From IMG/VR virus record IMGVR_UViG_3300027819_000007, positions 83,787 through 147,786 of that record: 64,000 bases of DNA, one strand, 5' to 3'. The position numbers and the translations under genes were made by a program. Shown in pieces: positions 31,565 through 48,301 of this stretch; the stretch's first letter is position 1; every line of letters starts with the position of its first letter. This DNA is from a virus (taxonomy: Duplodnaviria; Heunggongvirae; Uroviricota; Caudoviricetes). Under the pieces are notes generated by a model. It worked only from the letters and a program-made list of their open reading frames with translations. It was not told the origin of the DNA and ran no database searches.

Positions 31565-32407
31565 CTACTCCTTCTTGTTCACTACTGATTTGATGATGGG
31601 CATTCCATCATTGCCTGTGGGGACATACACCACGGCACCAGGATGATTTTTCAATGCCTCTACCCAAAGATAGCGAATGTAGTTATCTGTGAGAGTCCCT
31701 TGAATGATTTTCTGAGCATCGGCAATACCACTTGCTTCTGCCCGCTTCCGATCTGCTTCTAATTTTTCCTTACGGATGGTAAACTCCATTTGTTGTGCAG
31801 CCTGGTCCATTGCCAATTTTTGCTCGATAGCTTTTTGCACTACAGAAGGAAGATCAACATCTCTTAGCAAAACTCTTTCCACAATAATTCCATCAGCCTC
31901 CAAAGAAGATTTTGTTTCAGTGAATAAAGAGTTTTCTATCTTCTGACGATTAGCAGTGAAAAGATCTTCTGCTCGATAATTGGAAGTAGCTTCTCGAACC
32001 AAAGATCGAAATACAGGAACAATAAGCACTTGATCGTATCTCTCCCCGTACTTCTGGAAAATGGCAGGGGCATCTTTTGGTTTGATGGAATAAAGGAGGG
32101 ACACTTCCAAATGCACCCCTAGACCATCTTTCGTGGGAACATCCCCCTCTGCTTTGTATTCCCATGTTCGTATTGATATTTTATGAACGGATTTAAGTGG
32201 ATTGATCCAGTTAAATCCTTCCTGAATAGGGTGATCATCCACTGCTCCAAAAGTGGTTAGAACACCCACATGACCAGCGGGAATGGTAGTCCAACTCTTC
32301 ATCAATATGATAAAGAGCAAAAGAAACACGGATGCCACACCAAATCCCAAACATCCAAAATAGAAATTTCCCTTTTCCATACCAAGCTCCTTTATGGTTT
32401 TTGCCAT
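31565..32407 (-). CDS. SPFH/band-7 (prohibitin/HflC-like) membrane protein
   Basis: 280 aa. N-terminal TM helix followed by an SPFH core ('VPTKDGLGVHLEVSLLYSI', 'YDQVLIVPVFRSLVREATSNYRAEDL', 'LRDVDLPSVVQKAIEQKLAMDQAAQQMEF..KEKLEADRKRAEA'). Confidence 0.75.
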   Translation of the reverse strand: MAKTIKELGMEKGNFYFGCLGFGVASVFLLLFIILMKSWTTIPAGHVGVLTTFGAVDDHPIQEGFNWINPLKSVHKISIRTWEYKAEGDVPTKDGLGVHLEVSLLYSIKPKDAPAIFQKYGERYDQVLIVPVFRSLVREATSNYRAEDLFTANRQKIENSLFTETKSSLEADGIIVERVLLRDVDLPSVVQKAIEQKLAMDQAAQQMEFTIRKEKLEADRKRAEASGIADAQKIIQGTLTDNYIRYLWVEALKNHPGAVVYVPTGNDGMPIIKSVVNKKE

Positions 32408-33126
32408 CTTATCATGAGAACCATCAAATGAATTTCATCTGGTTCCCCTTCATTTCCCACCCGTGCTTCCATCACATCCCCTATTTCAATAGCTTTTGAG
32501 ATTCCAAATTCGTCAACTACAATTCCTGCTGTCTCCGGATTCATGTGGAAGTCTCCTTCCTTGGGACTACCCCATGTAACCACATCCATTGTCAGGAGAG
32601 CAGTTCCTCCTGGTTTAAGGACTCGTTTGGCCTCTTTTACGCATTGTGCATACTTACTTGAATGAACATGCTCCAGGACGGAACAGTTGACATAGCGGTC
32701 AAAAGTCTCATCAGGAAAAGGTAGTTCACACATATCACCTTGGGTTTGCTTGATGTTATCAAAACCAATCTGGTCAATGGTAACTTGAGCCTTCTTGATG
32801 AACTCTGGATTGATTTCCAAACAATCTACCCAATGAGTTCTAGTTGCCATAGCAAACTTCAAAATACTCCAACCACTTCCTATGTCCAGCACTCGATGAT
32901 GTTGTTGAAAATCTCCTTCCCTCAATATCCAAGGCCACTCTCGTTGTCTACTCCAGTGCATAGGAGAGGGAGTATTGGCGAAAACTACGTTAGCCAAAGC
33001 TCCTCGTGCAAAAATACAGGAAATAGGACAAATCATTTCATAAGACAGAAGTTCTCGAATAAGAGGATAATCCTCATCCAAACATGGACCTGCTAGAGCA
33101 GCATAAGAGGTTGGTTTAATGATCAT
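32392..33126 (-). CDS. class I SAM-dependent methyltransferase
   Basis: 244 aa. 'VLDIGSGWS' and 'LKPGGTALLTMD' motifs. Confidence 0.6.
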   Translation of the reverse strand: MIIKPTSYAALAGPCLDEDYPLIRELLSYEMICPISCIFARGALANVVFANTPSPMHWSRQREWPWILREGDFQQHHRVLDIGSGWSILKFAMATRTHWVDCLEINPEFIKKAQVTIDQIGFDNIKQTQGDMCELPFPDETFDRYVNCSVLEHVHSSKYAQCVKEAKRVLKPGGTALLTMDVVTWGSPKEGDFHMNPETAGIVVDEFGISKAIEIGDVMEARVGNEGEPDEIHLMVLMIRWQKP

Positions 33127-33127
33127 G

Positions 33128-33952
33128 TCAAATTCCTGAAATTCGTTTACGTTCTTCTACCAAGTTCCATGGATTGGGAGAAGGTACTTCCCACTTTGGT
33201 TCTTCCGGAGCACTTGAGATATGAGTAATCCTCCACATCCCTTCATTTCCGAGGGGAGAAAGTTCCTGGGGAGTATCCCATACTCGATGGTCTACCATGT
33301 GACAAACAGCAATTTCCTGATCGACTTCTAGTTTGTATCCTAACATTTTTGCCTGAGCCATCTTGCTGGTTACGGGCCAGCAATGACAATGATCTGCTCT
33401 TTCATCCACTCCATTGATAATATCGAAAAAGTCTCTGGTGATACTTACGTAAAAGGTCTCCCACTCTCTTGGAACCCAAGGCCACTTGGGAATCAAGGGA
33501 GGGGGGATTTTCCAGGTAGAGAAGTCATCAACCAGAGTTGGTTTAGGTGTTTCGTAAACAATGGCTGATCCGGAGATAAGAGTCTTGTCATCAAACTGTT
33601 TATGAAGATGGTCCCATGCCCTGATCCAGTAGGGAGGCAGCCAGGTATAATCACTGACAAAGACAATCCTTTCTCCTCTGCAATGGAGGAGAGCACTGTT
33701 CCAGGCGTTGCACAATCCGCCTTTCACATTGGAGTAAAACTTGTTTTTACTTTTGCGATAACAAGTAAGTGGTAATCCCATTGAGAGGATTCTTTTCTCA
33801 ACAACTCCTCGTTCAACTCTACCAGGATAATCATCGATGACAATGAATTCCCACTCGATTGTTTGATCGGTTCCTTGCAAAGTTTCTTGCAAGGAATGAC
33901 AAAGAATGTCAAATCCTCCAGGTCGGTAGCTGCACAGCACCAAAGAAATCAT
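33128..33952 (-). CDS. putative glycosyltransferase (GT-A fold)
   Basis: 274 aa. N-terminal 'ISLVLCSYRPGG' and a 'FIVIDDYPG' DxD-like region, as in family-2 glycosyltransferases. Confidence 0.45.
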   Translation of the reverse strand: MISLVLCSYRPGGFDILCHSLQETLQGTDQTIEWEFIVIDDYPGRVERGVVEKRILSMGLPLTCYRKSKNKFYSNVKGGLCNAWNSALLHCRGERIVFVSDYTWLPPYWIRAWDHLHKQFDDKTLISGSAIVYETPKPTLVDDFSTWKIPPPLIPKWPWVPREWETFYVSITRDFFDIINGVDERADHCHCWPVTSKMAQAKMLGYKLEVDQEIAVCHMVDHRVWDTPQELSPLGNEGMWRITHISSAPEEPKWEVPSPNPWNLVEERKRISGI

Positions 33953-47022: not shown

Positions 47023-47306
47023 ACATTTTCCAGGTGTGTAAAAGCATCTTCACCACACACTGCCTTGAGTGCTTTTTGGAACACCAAGTCGCGGAACTCA
47101 TTGTGGTTCCAACTACCCGTCTTGATTTTTTGCTCCACTACACTCTTGATAATGGGAGCCACGGCATTCCACATGTCAGCCTTCTTCTTATCAGGAAGGG
47201 TCATGACATTGTCCACATTGTTGAGGAGGAAGTTCTTACTTTGACGTACTTCCTCCAGTTGCTTTTCGAGGTCTTGTTCTTTGCCCATGAGTAAAGTTCC
47301 TTTCAA
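47019..47306 (-). CDS. hypothetical protein
   Basis: 95 aa ORF. Confidence 0.35.
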   Translation of the reverse strand: MKGTLLMGKEQDLEKQLEEVRQSKNFLLNNVDNVMTLPDKKKADMWNAVAPIIKSVVEQKIKTGSWNHNEFRDLVFQKALKAVCGEDAFTHLENV

Positions 47307-47566
47307 AGATTGTGGGTGATACTTCCAGAACTATATACTATTGGATAGCCAGCAAGGGTTCCTATCACTTGTCGTTTGGTCTCTAAAGGGTCCCATCCCT
47401 TACGTATCATACTTGCTGCTTCTCCTCTTTCATTCTCCTCCAACCAATCTCCATAGGCAGCTCGAATGGCAGGGTCTTTGGGATCGTCCAGGAGAGCACG
47501 TAGAAGGATTCGTTCCTGTTTACAAACCAACAGTTCGAGGATAAACTTAGTTAGTTCTGGAGTCAT
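47303..47566 (-). CDS. repeat-companion-like 'AAYGDWLEEN' domain protein
   Basis: 87 aa; 'ERILLRALLDDPKDPAIRAAYGDWLEENERGEAASMIRKG'. Confidence 0.45.
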   Translation of the reverse strand: MTPELTKFILELLVCKQERILLRALLDDPKDPAIRAAYGDWLEENERGEAASMIRKGWDPLETKRQVIGTLAGYPIVYSSGSITHNL

Positions 47567-47617
47567 AGTAGGTTGATTCCTCTTGATTGGAGAATATCAT
47601 AAGCACGGTTGAAATTC

Positions 47618-48301
47618 CTAAGTGTTGGGAGTGGTTTCCATCGGAACAAAAGATCCAAAAGTAGACTGAGCATATCCCACATGCTTTACGATAACCGATG
47701 TATCGACGAAGGAGGGTACTCCTAATTTGGTTTTTGCCATAACATTCATGGTGAAATCTTCGGAGAGACAATTATCATACTTTGGTTTTCCTGTAGTTGG
47801 GTCTTTGATGTCCCTTTGATCTACCCTCCACCAAAACCAGTGTTTGCCTAGTTCGGGAGCTTGAGGGGGAAAATTCTCCAGGAACCATCTGGATAGTAGG
47901 AGGAACCCAGCTCCTACCATATCCACTTCCACCAAAGAACCAGGAGTAAAATTAGTTACCCATGTTCCGTTCTTAATCATAACTGGAACGGAATGTGGAG
48001 GAGAACGCCTGCAATACATTCCACTCACAATAGGAAGGTTATGGCGAAGGAGTTTAAGGATCCCATCCCTAGGTGGTATACAATCCGAATCAAGGTGGAG
48101 AACATGGGAAAATCCTCCATCCAAAGCGGCTTGATTCAGAGAGTTCCGAGCATGGTCGAAGGGCATACCAGCTACAGGAAGGAATGCTCCCCTTCCAGGA
48201 ATAATCAAATTACGAAATCCACATGCCCACGCTACCGTAGTCACATCGGTATGAAGAGTTCCCACTAGGACGTCATGCTGCATCTCCCAACAACCACTCA
48301 T
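47618..48301 (-). CDS. putative glycosyltransferase (DxD-type)
   Basis: 227 aa. 'HLDSDCIPP' is DxD-like; sits at the end of the glycan cluster. Confidence 0.4.
   Translation of the reverse strand: MSGCWEMQHDVLVGTLHTDVTTVAWACGFRNLIIPGRGAFLPVAGMPFDHARNSLNQAALDGGFSHVLHLDSDCIPPRDGILKLLRHNLPIVSGMYCRRSPPHSVPVMIKNGTWVTNFTPGSLVEVDMVGAGFLLLSRWFLENFPPQAPELGKHWFWWRVDQRDIKDPTTGKPKYDNCLSEDFTMNVMAKTKLGVPSFVDTSVIVKHVGYAQSTFGSFVPMETTPNT

Follow-up and report, generated by a model that had tools for sequence, protein, structure and literature searches.

What sugar do the genes crowded into one part of a tailed-phage genome make, and onto what is it transferred? We asked this of a 64,000-nucleotide stretch of DNA (the window) that covers positions 83,787 to 147,786 of the IMG/VR record IMGVR_UViG_3300027819_000007 (Caudoviricetes) and carries, between 30 and 50 kb, a dense run of open reading frames (ORFs) on the minus strand. 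A preliminary description, made by reading the sequence, had proposed at positions 32392-48301 a virus-encoded cluster for nucleotide-sugar modification and glycosylation, containing a 4,6-dehydratase or epimerase of the short-chain dehydrogenase/reductase (SDR) type, a DegT aminotransferase, an N-formyltransferase, a C-methyltransferase, a HAD phosphatase, four glycosyltransferases (GTs), and methyltransferases. We found the named ORFs on the minus strand at, or within ~45 nt of, the positions given there, and profile searches backed their families (Table 1). The reading that we favor, with a probability of roughly 0.55, is that of a conserved phage-encoded glycosylation module with a rare-sugar cassette whose first enzyme is an NDP-uronic acid decarboxylase and with a cytoplasmic acceptor, for which virion proteins are the favored candidates.

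A ten-gene module shared by uncultivated tailed phages

We recovered relatives of the locus from IMG/VR by exact-protein look-up of the closest DegT homologues and by a scan based on a DegT alignment, and evaluated their synteny by BLAST. The related phage loci are L031 (on a 112-kb contig), L032, and IMGVR_UViG_3300045107_000275 (L035 and L020, 31,361 bp). Scans of IMG/VR with single C-methyltransferase, DegT, or fvmX5 proteins or with a three-phage C-methyltransferase alignment returned no relatives, the degenerate patterns being over-specific. The window and the three relatives have in common a collinear block of ten genes (36-57% amino acid [aa] identity), in the order GT-A (227 aa), GT4, GT4, DegT, formyltransferase, SDR, C-methyltransferase, GT2-like, class-I methyltransferase, and multidomain methyltransferase (~630 aa). 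The block is compact in IMGVR_UViG_3300045107_000275 (962-15189), where the major capsid protein (MCP) gene follows on the same strand, 6.7 kb downstream, at 21951. The last core gene has homologues (products 36-39% identical) that in L031, L032, and L035/L020 follow the C-methyltransferase and GT2 genes at a short distance and that in L006 and L021 lie upstream of the MCP. The core genes of the proposed cluster stand and its boundary does not, as the module reaches the 630-aa methyltransferase (24581-26473), beyond the range first given. The gene following the module in L032 (19308-21015, running off the locus) encodes a protein of 2,006 aa in which DUF7178 and PI3_PI4_kinase domains are present.

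Several ORFs interleaved with the core genes are missing from all three relatives: the HAD ORF, a 125-aa ORF, a 181-aa TIGR02996 ORF, the sigma factor, the fvmX5 protein, the SPFH protein, and the small transmembrane (TM) ORFs. These ORFs, and the "DWLEE" ORFs with them, are inserts specific to the window and form no part of the pathway. The HAD ORF exists, with weak matches (2e-05), and was ruled out as a pathway member, none being found in the relatives; its likeness to an NT5C-type protein of L046 and L047 is confined to the DxDGVL motif and is not significant. The interleaved extracytoplasmic function (ECF) sigma factor, small TM ORFs, and "DWLEE" paralogues of the preliminary description are real, as TIGR02937 and TIGR02996 matches attest for the first and the last.

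More distant relatives (L045, L046, and L047) retain as a backbone the genes for a Ser/Gly-rich fiber of ~1,570 aa, for a Ser/Thr/Gly-rich protein of 224 aa (52785-53459 in the window), for the GT-A, and for two GT4 enzymes, together with a Laminin_G_3 protein in L046. Past the second GT4 their gene content differs (Methyltransf_21, PhyH), so the amino-sugar cassette looks like one version of a variable slot within a conserved glycosylation module.

That the cluster is encoded by a virus was borne out by the MCP, the portal, and the synteny with IMG/VR contigs. Head-tail connector-like and fiber-like proteins are also encoded in the window, and nearly all genes lie on one strand. The window MCP is 61-70% identical to the MCPs of 26 IMG/VR contigs, two of which measure 137-140 kb; exact window proteins were also found on a 163,635-bp contig, and relatives reached via the GT-A protein are contigs of 139-187 kb. 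The lineage consists of uncultivated tailed phages of roughly 140-190 kb. When the 16-kb region was compared by megablast with 50,697 phage records, nothing matched; the window has no close relative among these sequenced phages. We also considered a host O-antigen island, raised in the preliminary description, and a phage-bacterial chimera; both were ruled out by the phage context and by an arrangement common to four independent assemblies.

Some contigs labeled as Patescibacteria are syntenic with the fiber and GT region of the window. L045 (GCA_028872085.1, JAGWLI010000001.1, 160,863 bp) and protein P0145 were deposited at NCBI as sequences of Patescibacteria/Parcubacteria metagenome-assembled genomes; such contigs of the lineage look like mis-binned phage genomes. 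As for the host, TIGR02996, which we take to be a Gemmata/Planctomycetes-associated domain, passes its cut-off in two window ORFs (66.8 and 36.8 bits), which gives a hint, and only a hint, of a possible planctomycete. At least 12 ORFs carry a motif of the DW/YLEE type (at 22956-23711, 23938-24546, 33949-34494, 40666-41118, 47303-47566, 48674-50380, and 52478-55388).

A putative cassette for an N-formylated, C-methylated amino sugar

We then analyzed the sequences of the cassette enzymes. Pfam and PDB matches confirmed the DegT aminotransferase, the sugar-type N-formyltransferase, the TylC3-like C-methyltransferase, and the methyltransferases. The C-methyltransferase displays a complete three-domain layout (a zinc-binding domain, a class-I S-adenosylmethionine [SAM] methyltransferase domain, and a C-terminal C-methyltransferase domain, covering residues 9 to 410) and matches over its full length TylC3 (4rv9, 4.5e-53), TcaB9 (3.6e-50), and KijD1 (2.5e-48); the structures 4rv9, 3ndi, and 5t64 were aligned. 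Residues C9, C12, C53, C56, Y77, H180, Y221, E223, and H224 are invariant in 35 sequences and also in three phages. The zinc cysteines and the Tyr/His/Tyr/Glu/His active site (presumably Y76, H181, Y222, E224, and H225 in TcaB9) thus appear to be conserved, and, because the protein is a relative of TylC3, TcaB9, and KijD1 with this active site, we expect that it needs a keto sugar as its substrate.

The best PDB matches of the DegT protein are AtmS13 (4xau, 5e-58) and CalS13 (4e-50), followed by perosamine synthases and ArnB, and its best NCBIfam models are PseC, LegC, and ArnB. C-3 aminotransferases score much lower (QdtB, 1.3e-25; WbpE, 3.6e-28). This similarity ranking suggests that the enzyme probably acts at C-4 and not at C-3. 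Two residues, K186 (in SFQS-K) and D155, do not vary among the aligned phage sequences; going by the family at large, we take the first for the pyridoxal phosphate (PLP) lysine and the second for the conserved Asp. AtmS13, the nearest solved homologue, is an aminopentose-pathway enzyme on a route starting from a nucleoside diphosphate (NDP)-glucuronic acid decarboxylase; in the AT2433 route, an NDP-glucose dehydrogenase and this decarboxylase precede the C-4 aminotransferase, which acts on a 4-keto-pentose (PMC10951976). As noted in the preliminary description, no nucleotidyltransferase or 3,4-ketoisomerase is present among the window ORFs of at least 150 aa scanned with Pfam (those at 48674-50380 and 50388-51218 had no match of any kind). 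Given that no ketoisomerase was found and that the closest characterized aminotransferases are all C-4 enzymes, the 3-amino sugar of the Qui3NFo/Fuc3NFo type put forward at first is unlikely.

The formyltransferase is short, and its best PDB matches are sugar N-formyltransferases (4xcz, 1.4e-10; WbkC, 5vys, 3e-09). The motifs NFHPAPLPEY(K/R)GRN and D(T/A)G(P/D)IIE are kept in the four phages and align with 4xcz and 5vys (Asn-x-His, Asp, and folate motifs). The N-terminal Rossmann-like subdomain is incomplete, with ~65 residues before NFH versus ~100, and the Pfam profile is matched at positions 101-178 only; PseJ (192 aa) is similarly short and gives a weak match (3.7e-4). A methionyl-tRNA formyltransferase, a possibility raised with the preliminary description, was ruled out: the 214-aa protein lacks the C-terminal tRNA-binding domain of Fmt and reaches 65.6 bits against TIGR00460, the cut-off being 201.5.

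Is the SDR a decarboxylase or a dehydratase?

Since the C-methyltransferase and the aminotransferase need a keto sugar and no other cassette enzyme makes one, the SDR would have the keto-forming role. Its best single-sequence PDB match is human UXS1, a UDP-glucuronic acid decarboxylase (2.9e-32), and the alignment pairs ASSSEVY with ASTSEVY, YAASK with YDEGK, and GKETRAF with GSQTRAF (the loop Arg of UXS1 is presumably R277). Residues S116, S118, E119, Y147, K151, and R212 are invariant in 42 sequences; they are common to some dehydratases too and are necessary, not sufficient. The protein does not contain the Asp-Glu dyad of RmlB (STDEVYG), its motif being SSSEVYQ with Ser for Asp, and it falls under every NCBIfam cut-off, including those of RmlB (TIGR01181, 136.5 bits versus 365.1), LegB (134.1 versus 475), and the decarboxylase models PRK11908 (82.3 versus 294) and ArnA (53.4 versus 777). 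The SDR family assigned in the preliminary description is sound, and the enzyme is probably not a 4,6-dehydratase of the RmlB type.

We next looked into the genomic neighborhood of the phage C-methyltransferase homologues, which number thousands in prokaryotes at ~50% identity. We took 80 genome loci and counted features in those that had 5 kb or more of sequence on the upstream side (67 loci). An SDR of the phage subfamily (≥40% identity) is located directly upstream of the C-methyltransferase, at most 300 bp away, in 55/67 loci, a nucleotide-sugar 6-dehydrogenase is found within 6 kb in 57/67, and 49/67 show both features. Bacterial SDRs encoded immediately before C-methyltransferase homologues share 45-47% identity with the phage SDR. 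A complete Arn-like operon, in the order dehydrogenase, formyltransferase, DegT, GT2, SDR, and C-methyltransferase, is present in L063; L095 has this gene set too and, after it on the opposite strand, a gene for a 532-aa protein that we read as a membrane protein, and a hexapeptide-type acetyltransferase takes the place of the formyltransferase in L076, L120, L062, and L059. The small GT2 enzymes of these operons resemble polyprenyl-phosphate sugar synthases (ArnC/PpgS-like). Altogether, the operon resembles the Arn pathway with an extra C-methylation; we know of no described product for it. The neighborhood tells more about the SDR than sequence similarity does. Because its subfamily is tied to nucleotide-sugar 6-dehydrogenases and to Arn-like operons, we lean, as the most economical reading, toward the SDR being an NDP-uronic acid decarboxylase that would make a 4-keto-pentose.

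The operons (L063:1303-7540, L095:4225-11236, and L120:4991-12861 among L050-L129) are widespread in bacteria and archaea and are often trailed by a ~550-aa protein, likewise read as a membrane protein; Bradyrhizobium sp. Rc3b (L109) is an example of a cultivable carrier.

A less probable but still credible alternative, nearest to the preliminary description, keeps the same module and makes the SDR an NDP-hexose 4,6-dehydratase (LegB/GMD/RmlB-like), with a 3-C-methyl-4-formamido-4,6-dideoxyhexose of the viosamine, perosamine, or bacillosamine type as the product. The best NCBIfam matches of the SDR are indeed dTDP-glucose 4,6-dehydratase (1e-39) and LegB (5e-39), none being a decarboxylase, all of them far under cut-off. 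PseC and LegC lead for DegT, the formyltransferase matches in PDB include GDP-perosamine and dTDP-Qui4N formyltransferases, and every characterized TylC3-family enzyme, going by the family names, works on 4-keto-6-deoxyhexoses. GDP-mannose 4,6-dehydratases (GMD) have a Thr-Ser-Glu motif like the Ser-Ser-Glu of the SDR; no GMD structure appeared among the PDB matches at 1e-15, which speaks against an SDR of that type. The model scores reach about one-third of the cut-offs, the RmlB dyad is absent, and a dehydratase would leave the linkage to the 6-dehydrogenases unexplained. A plain 4-epimerase is suggested by the 42-sequence subfamily profile, which ranks in PDB a GDP-sugar 4-epimerase from Pyrococcus (8rdg, 180 bits; PMC12171764) above UXS1 (162) and an RmlB-type enzyme (151). 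We consider this activity unlikely: E119 is invariant in the subfamily where 8rdg has Thr, which places the SDR in the decarboxylase/dehydratase class, and the cassette would then have no maker of the keto sugar for the C-methyltransferase and DegT. Activities other than decarboxylation and 4,6-dehydration share the small probability that remains.

Besides these NCBIfam and profile rankings, several points weigh against the decarboxylase and against the reading built upon it. Sequence similarity alone does not settle the activity of the SDR, and the identity of the sugar and that of its acceptor are inferred from sequence. The prokaryotic dehydrogenases are closer to UDP-ManNAc than to UDP-glucose dehydrogenases; the window encodes neither a dehydrogenase nor a nucleotidyltransferase, and the loci of the three relatives have no dehydrogenase. 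The phage DegT and formyltransferase are just 28-39% identical to their counterparts in the Arn-like operons, so the phage cassette is a mosaic, and the wider relatives have three GTs without the amino-sugar cassette. Finally, the genome measures 163 kb or more, of which the window covers 64 kb, and DNA-modification genes may lie elsewhere.

Proposed pathway

We propose that the host provides one of its common nucleotide sugars, an NDP-hexuronic acid being the likeliest, and that the SDR, as its motif and gene neighborhood suggest, would oxidize it at C-4 and release C-6 as CO2 to yield an NDP-4-keto-pentose; alternatively, it would dehydrate an NDP-hexose into a 4-keto-6-deoxyhexose. The TylC3-type enzyme, with its catalytic residues conserved, would place a methyl group onto a carbon adjacent to the keto group (C-3 or C-5), and DegT would convert the 4-keto into a 4-amino group, both steps being assigned at the family level. 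The formyltransferase, whose catalytic motifs are conserved, would then N-formylate the amine from N10-formyl-tetrahydrofolate. The single GT-A, the two GT4 enzymes, and the GT2-like enzyme would build an oligosaccharide with this sugar, and the 244-aa and 630-aa methyltransferases would methylate the glycan. Hence, the sugar may be a C-methylated 4-formamido-pentose instead of a dideoxyhexose. The hijacking of a host NDP-4-keto-6-deoxy sugar, invoked in the preliminary description, is not needed if, as is likely, the phage SDR forms the keto group, the host giving an NDP-uronic acid or an NDP-hexose.

Glycosyltransferases and glycan methyltransferases

All four GTs of the preliminary description could be substantiated, two of them as GT-B enzymes by Pfam. 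The product of the first core gene had no Pfam match but has 171 homologue clusters, some of which match PF03452 (Anp1/GT62). Its AlphaFold (AF2) model, computed from 44 homologues, shows a GT-A fold with a mean predicted local distance difference test score (pLDDT) of 91.8. A Foldseek search with this model gave probability 1.00 to many GT-A structures; A197 of Sulfolobus turreted icosahedral virus (STIV) ranked first (5.8e-10), before the human collagen galactosyltransferase COLGALT1, LH3, Mimivirus R699, and yeast Mnn9. A DxD-type motif (D71-S-D73) is invariant in the 44 homologues.

The fourth GT is a divergent GT2-like protein. In its family, three of four members match PF00535 (best, 4.9e-06), and hhalign gave 78% probability against bacterial GT2; the AF2 model from the single sequence (pLDDT 32) was unusable. 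In two relatives, L031 and L035, this GT and the adjacent methyltransferase form one fused protein, of 511 and 528 aa, respectively; the 244-aa methyltransferase, which corresponds to the C-terminal domain of the fusion, probably O-methylates the glycan.

Two features of the GT genes in relatives may be mentioned here. A LAGLIDADG intein of 413 aa splits the GT-A homologue of L031 (4699-6597), its insertion point falling precisely at the junction of the conserved GAG and CLL residues; the intein begins with Cys and ends in His-Asn, followed by Cys. In L046 (13306-13842) and L047 (11626-12204), an NT5C-type 5'(3')-deoxyribonucleotidase gene lies between the GT-A and the first GT4 and is the sole hint of nucleotide metabolism inside the module.

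Candidate acceptors of the glycan

None of the ten core proteins contains a TM-like segment, and Pfam searches of the window ORFs detected no lipid-carrier transferase, flippase, polymerase, GT-C, or exporter families and no ArnC, ArnD, ArnE/F, or ArnT. Given the predicted solubility of every enzyme and the lack of accompanying genes for export or lipid carriers, the acceptor is probably cytoplasmic. According to hhalign, the GT2-like and GT-A enzymes of the phage are unrelated to the ArnC/PpgS-like GT2 of the operons; an ArnC-type lipid-carrier transferase inherited with the SDR/C-methyltransferase pair was ruled out for the former (probability of at most 2%).

These results bear on the possibility that the glycan remodels the envelope of the infected host (lipid A, lipopolysaccharide, capsule, or S-layer), for instance to block superinfection, with the N-formyl sugar fed into host lipid-carrier and export enzymes as in the Arn system. 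Phage-encoded serotype conversion is common, the prokaryotic SDR/C-methyltransferase cassettes are accompanied by ArnC/PpgS-like GT2 enzymes and large membrane proteins, which suggests that their sugar goes to the envelope, and an SPFH/Band 7 protein and small TM ORFs occur within the window cluster. However, the membrane ORFs are not kept in the relatives, the module is devoid of polyprenyl-phosphate transferase, flippase, polymerase, GT-C, and ATP-binding cassette (ABC) exporter genes, and its four GTs have neither TM segments nor kinship with the operon GT2. In addition, the module is located between portal and capsid genes and not near lysogeny genes, and we regard an envelope target as improbable. 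Serotype conversion by phages is mentioned in PMC12619734.

Virion proteins are the acceptors that we favor as most likely, and a Ser/Gly-rich fiber or a capsid protein would be the candidates. They lead because the module sits between portal and capsid genes (the stretch from portal to MCP holds all four GTs) and directly upstream of head genes in one relative, because a fiber gene is nearby, and because the structural neighbors of the GT-A are mainly protein and viral GTs. The larger fiber ORF of the window (16% Ser and 20% Gly) is homologous to proteins of 1,560-1,583 aa encoded ahead of the three GTs in L031 and L045-L047. Wherever its place can be read, the fiber gene is found upstream of the GT-A, at 2.5-6 kb in L031, L045, L046, and L047 and at ~7.4 kb in the window.

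Relatives encode the fiber in one piece of ~1,570 aa (L045:1268-6019, L046:1731-6449), and the window has two ORFs for it (284 and 772 aa) with a Laminin_G_3 gene between them.

We also weighed whether the transferases hypermodify the phage DNA, with a complex methylated glycan on hydroxymethylated bases serving restriction evasion. All the enzymes are cytoplasmic, an NT5C gene lies among the GT genes of L046 and L047, and phage GTs build diverse DNA glycans (Pyle et al. 2024, as cited in PMC12619734). Nevertheless, the 64-kb window holds no signature of a hydroxymethylase, a dNTP-modifying enzyme, or a DNA-binding GT, its HAD ORF shows no significant similarity to NT5C, and the GT-A has protein glycosyltransferases as structural neighbors. 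Four GTs and four or five methyltransferase domains of the sugar type suggest an oligosaccharide beyond any known DNA adduct, which makes a DNA target very improbable.

Comparison with known systems

The phage cassette follows the same logic as the Arn system (PmrHFIJKLM; Ugd, ArnA, ArnB, ArnC, ArnD, and ArnT), which places 4-amino-4-deoxy-L-arabinose (L-Ara4N) on lipid A: an SDR provides a 4-keto sugar, a DegT enzyme aminates C-4, and a PurN-fold enzyme N-formylates the amine. All three phage enzymes match ArnA or ArnB models, with scores far under the equivalog cut-offs. Unlike in Arn, the phage enzymes are separate, without the ArnA fusion, and a C-methyltransferase is added. Because the phage has soluble GT-A and GT-B enzymes and none of Ugd, ArnC, ArnD, ArnE/F, and ArnT, the acceptor is probably not lipid A.

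The C-methyltransferases TylC3, TcaB9, and KijD1 of actinomycete antibiotic pathways have the same three domains, with the zinc and active-site residues kept, but they act in secondary metabolism on dTDP-4-keto-2,6-dideoxy or 3-amino-trideoxy hexoses, whereas the phage protein belongs to a large, uncharacterized prokaryotic clade whose partners are a UXS-like SDR and a nucleotide-sugar dehydrogenase. The closest parallel for DegT lies in AT2433 (AtmS8/S9/S13) and calicheamicin (CalS13) biosynthesis, AtmS13 and CalS13 being its best solved homologues, and the calicheamicin pathway also makes an aminopentose. These pathways differ by N-methylation instead of N-formylation, 2-deoxygenation, the absence of C-methylation, and a small-molecule aglycone.

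As in the phage, giant viruses join dehydratase, aminotransferase, and N-acyltransferase genes with GTs and methyltransferases. Fusions of GTs and methyltransferases occur in both, with chlorovirus A064R as a precedent in virion glycosylation, and the GT-A fold of the phage resembles Mimivirus R699 and STIV A197. The phage differs by its tailed morphology and bacterial host, by a predicted N-formyl in place of an N-acetyl amine, and by the added C-methylation. The clusters of Mimivirus and Megavirinae (viosamine, bacillosamine, rhamnosamine) yield rare, "bacterial-like" amino sugars, which are methylated and go into the fibrils or capsids of the virions (PMC10117803, PMC9614988), and the text of a 2022 review of giant-virus glycans contains neither "formyl" nor "C-methyl."

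Among tailed phages, mycobacteriophages with glycosylated virions encode, to our knowledge, GTs only and use host sugar nucleotides; the phage studied here adds to four GTs a four-enzyme rare-sugar pathway and several methyltransferase domains. In the mycobacteriophages, subunits of the capsid and the tail tube receive their glycans from the phages' own GTs within the cytoplasm (Freeman et al. 2023, as cited in PMC12619734). TylC3-like genes were detected in 9 of the 50,697 phage records (23-32% identity), mostly in uncultured phages of 600-735 kb and in a few cyanophages, and our searches of the literature collection covered here retrieved no description of phage clusters combining a sugar N-formyltransferase and a C-methyltransferase, or of this lineage.

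Home-made rare sugars for viral glycosylation are established in giant viruses, and the known cases of tailed-phage virion glycosylation rely on GTs alone. If our favored reading is true, bacterial viruses would also carry a full kit for building glycans, with likely consequences for host recognition and for particle stability or shielding. The analysis also exposes a large, uncharacterized family of prokaryotic operons that may represent an unrecognized envelope modification akin to the Arn pathway of polymyxin resistance. A more specific combined proposal, which we put forward tentatively and consider doubtful as a whole, is that the phage lineage makes by itself an N-formylated, C-methyl-branched 4-amino-pentose, O-methylated and carried on Ser/Gly-rich virion fibers, and that the SDR/C-methyltransferase pair defines a widespread "C-methyl-Arn" envelope pathway in bacteria and archaea. 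The sugar would then be new to viruses and possibly to any organism, and the module would be a phage counterpart of the autonomous glycosylation of giant viruses.

Other features of the window

Table 1. Features of the window, in order of position
Feature	Length (aa)	Coordinates	Strand	Matches and remarks
MCP, HK97-fold		3409..4860	-	PF05065 9.7e-33; phrog_617 9e-38
Multidomain class-I methyltransferase (two to three domains)	630	24581..26473	-	PF13489 in 3 stretches, 1.6e-27
SPFH/Band 7 membrane protein		31565-32380		This phage only
Class-I SAM methyltransferase	244	32392..33126	-	PF13649 5e-18; PF08241 1.3e-17
Divergent GT2-like (GT-A) glycosyltransferase	274	33128..33952	-	PF00535 E 0.0058, under the Pfam cut-off by itself
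TylC3/TcaB9-type sugar C-methyltransferase	416	34507..35757	-	PF08421 4.6e-10; PF13489 4.1e-23; PF08484 2.5e-32
Extended SDR	317	35759..36712 (ORF to 36757; called start 36712 on the source contig)	-	PF01370 4e-45
Short sugar N-formyltransferase	214	37093..37737	-	PF00551 1.6e-15, catalytic half only
HAD-superfamily phosphatase-like ORF		37737..38174 (ORF to 38180)	-	NIF/HAD-IIIA, weak: PF03031 2e-05, TIGR01662 9e-06; no homologue in L031, L032, L035
PLP-dependent DegT aminotransferase	373	38174..39295 (ORF to 39334; called start 39295)	-	PF01041 1.6e-81, profile 3-360 of 360
Second GT-B (GT4) glycosyltransferase	350	42383..43435	-	PF13692 4.5e-18; PF00534 6.2e-17; syntenic homologues 41-53% identical
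ECF-type sigma factor		44657-45364		TIGR02937 45.9 bits versus cut-off 42.9; this phage only
fvmX5 domain protein		45373-45927		PF20003 2.7e-45; domain known from FtsH ternary conflict systems; this phage only
GT-B glycosyltransferase, GT4 type	344	45988..47022	-	PF00534 2.3e-18; PF13692; PF13439; syntenic homologues in three relatives 50-55% identical
GT-A fold glycosyltransferase, first core gene	227	47618..48301	-	Structure model; kept in L031, L032, IMGVR_UViG_3300045107_000275
Ser/Gly-rich repeat fiber-like protein	772	55743..58061	-	PHROG matches: tail fiber, virion structural protein
Second piece of Ser/Gly-rich fiber	284	59382..60236	-	Matches C-terminal part of ~1,570-aa fibers of relatives
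Portal		60852-63596		PF04860

The portal and MCP genes are ~56 kb apart on the same strand. Between them lie giant ORFs (1,622, 1,071, and 943 aa) with no family matches, the glycosylation module, and many inserts; the corresponding stretch is far shorter in IMGVR_UViG_3300045107_000275.

A Thg1-like gene (tRNA-His guanylyltransferase family, PF04446, 7.8e-27) is located directly upstream of four tRNA genes (Met, Leu, Met, and Glu), at 28773-29940, and a fifth tRNA gene (tRNA-Val, 31056-31131) overlaps a listed ORF (30975-31562). Between 50900 and 55000, five adjacent ORFs contain a basic peptide, KSLR(L/I/M/R)KY, with further basic residues (e.g., IKSLRLKYRKK), which closes two of the ORFs, opens a third, and lies inside the other two. 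Two of these KSLR copies have in common a 45-nt DNA repeat (51576-51620 and 53704-53748, 73% identity).

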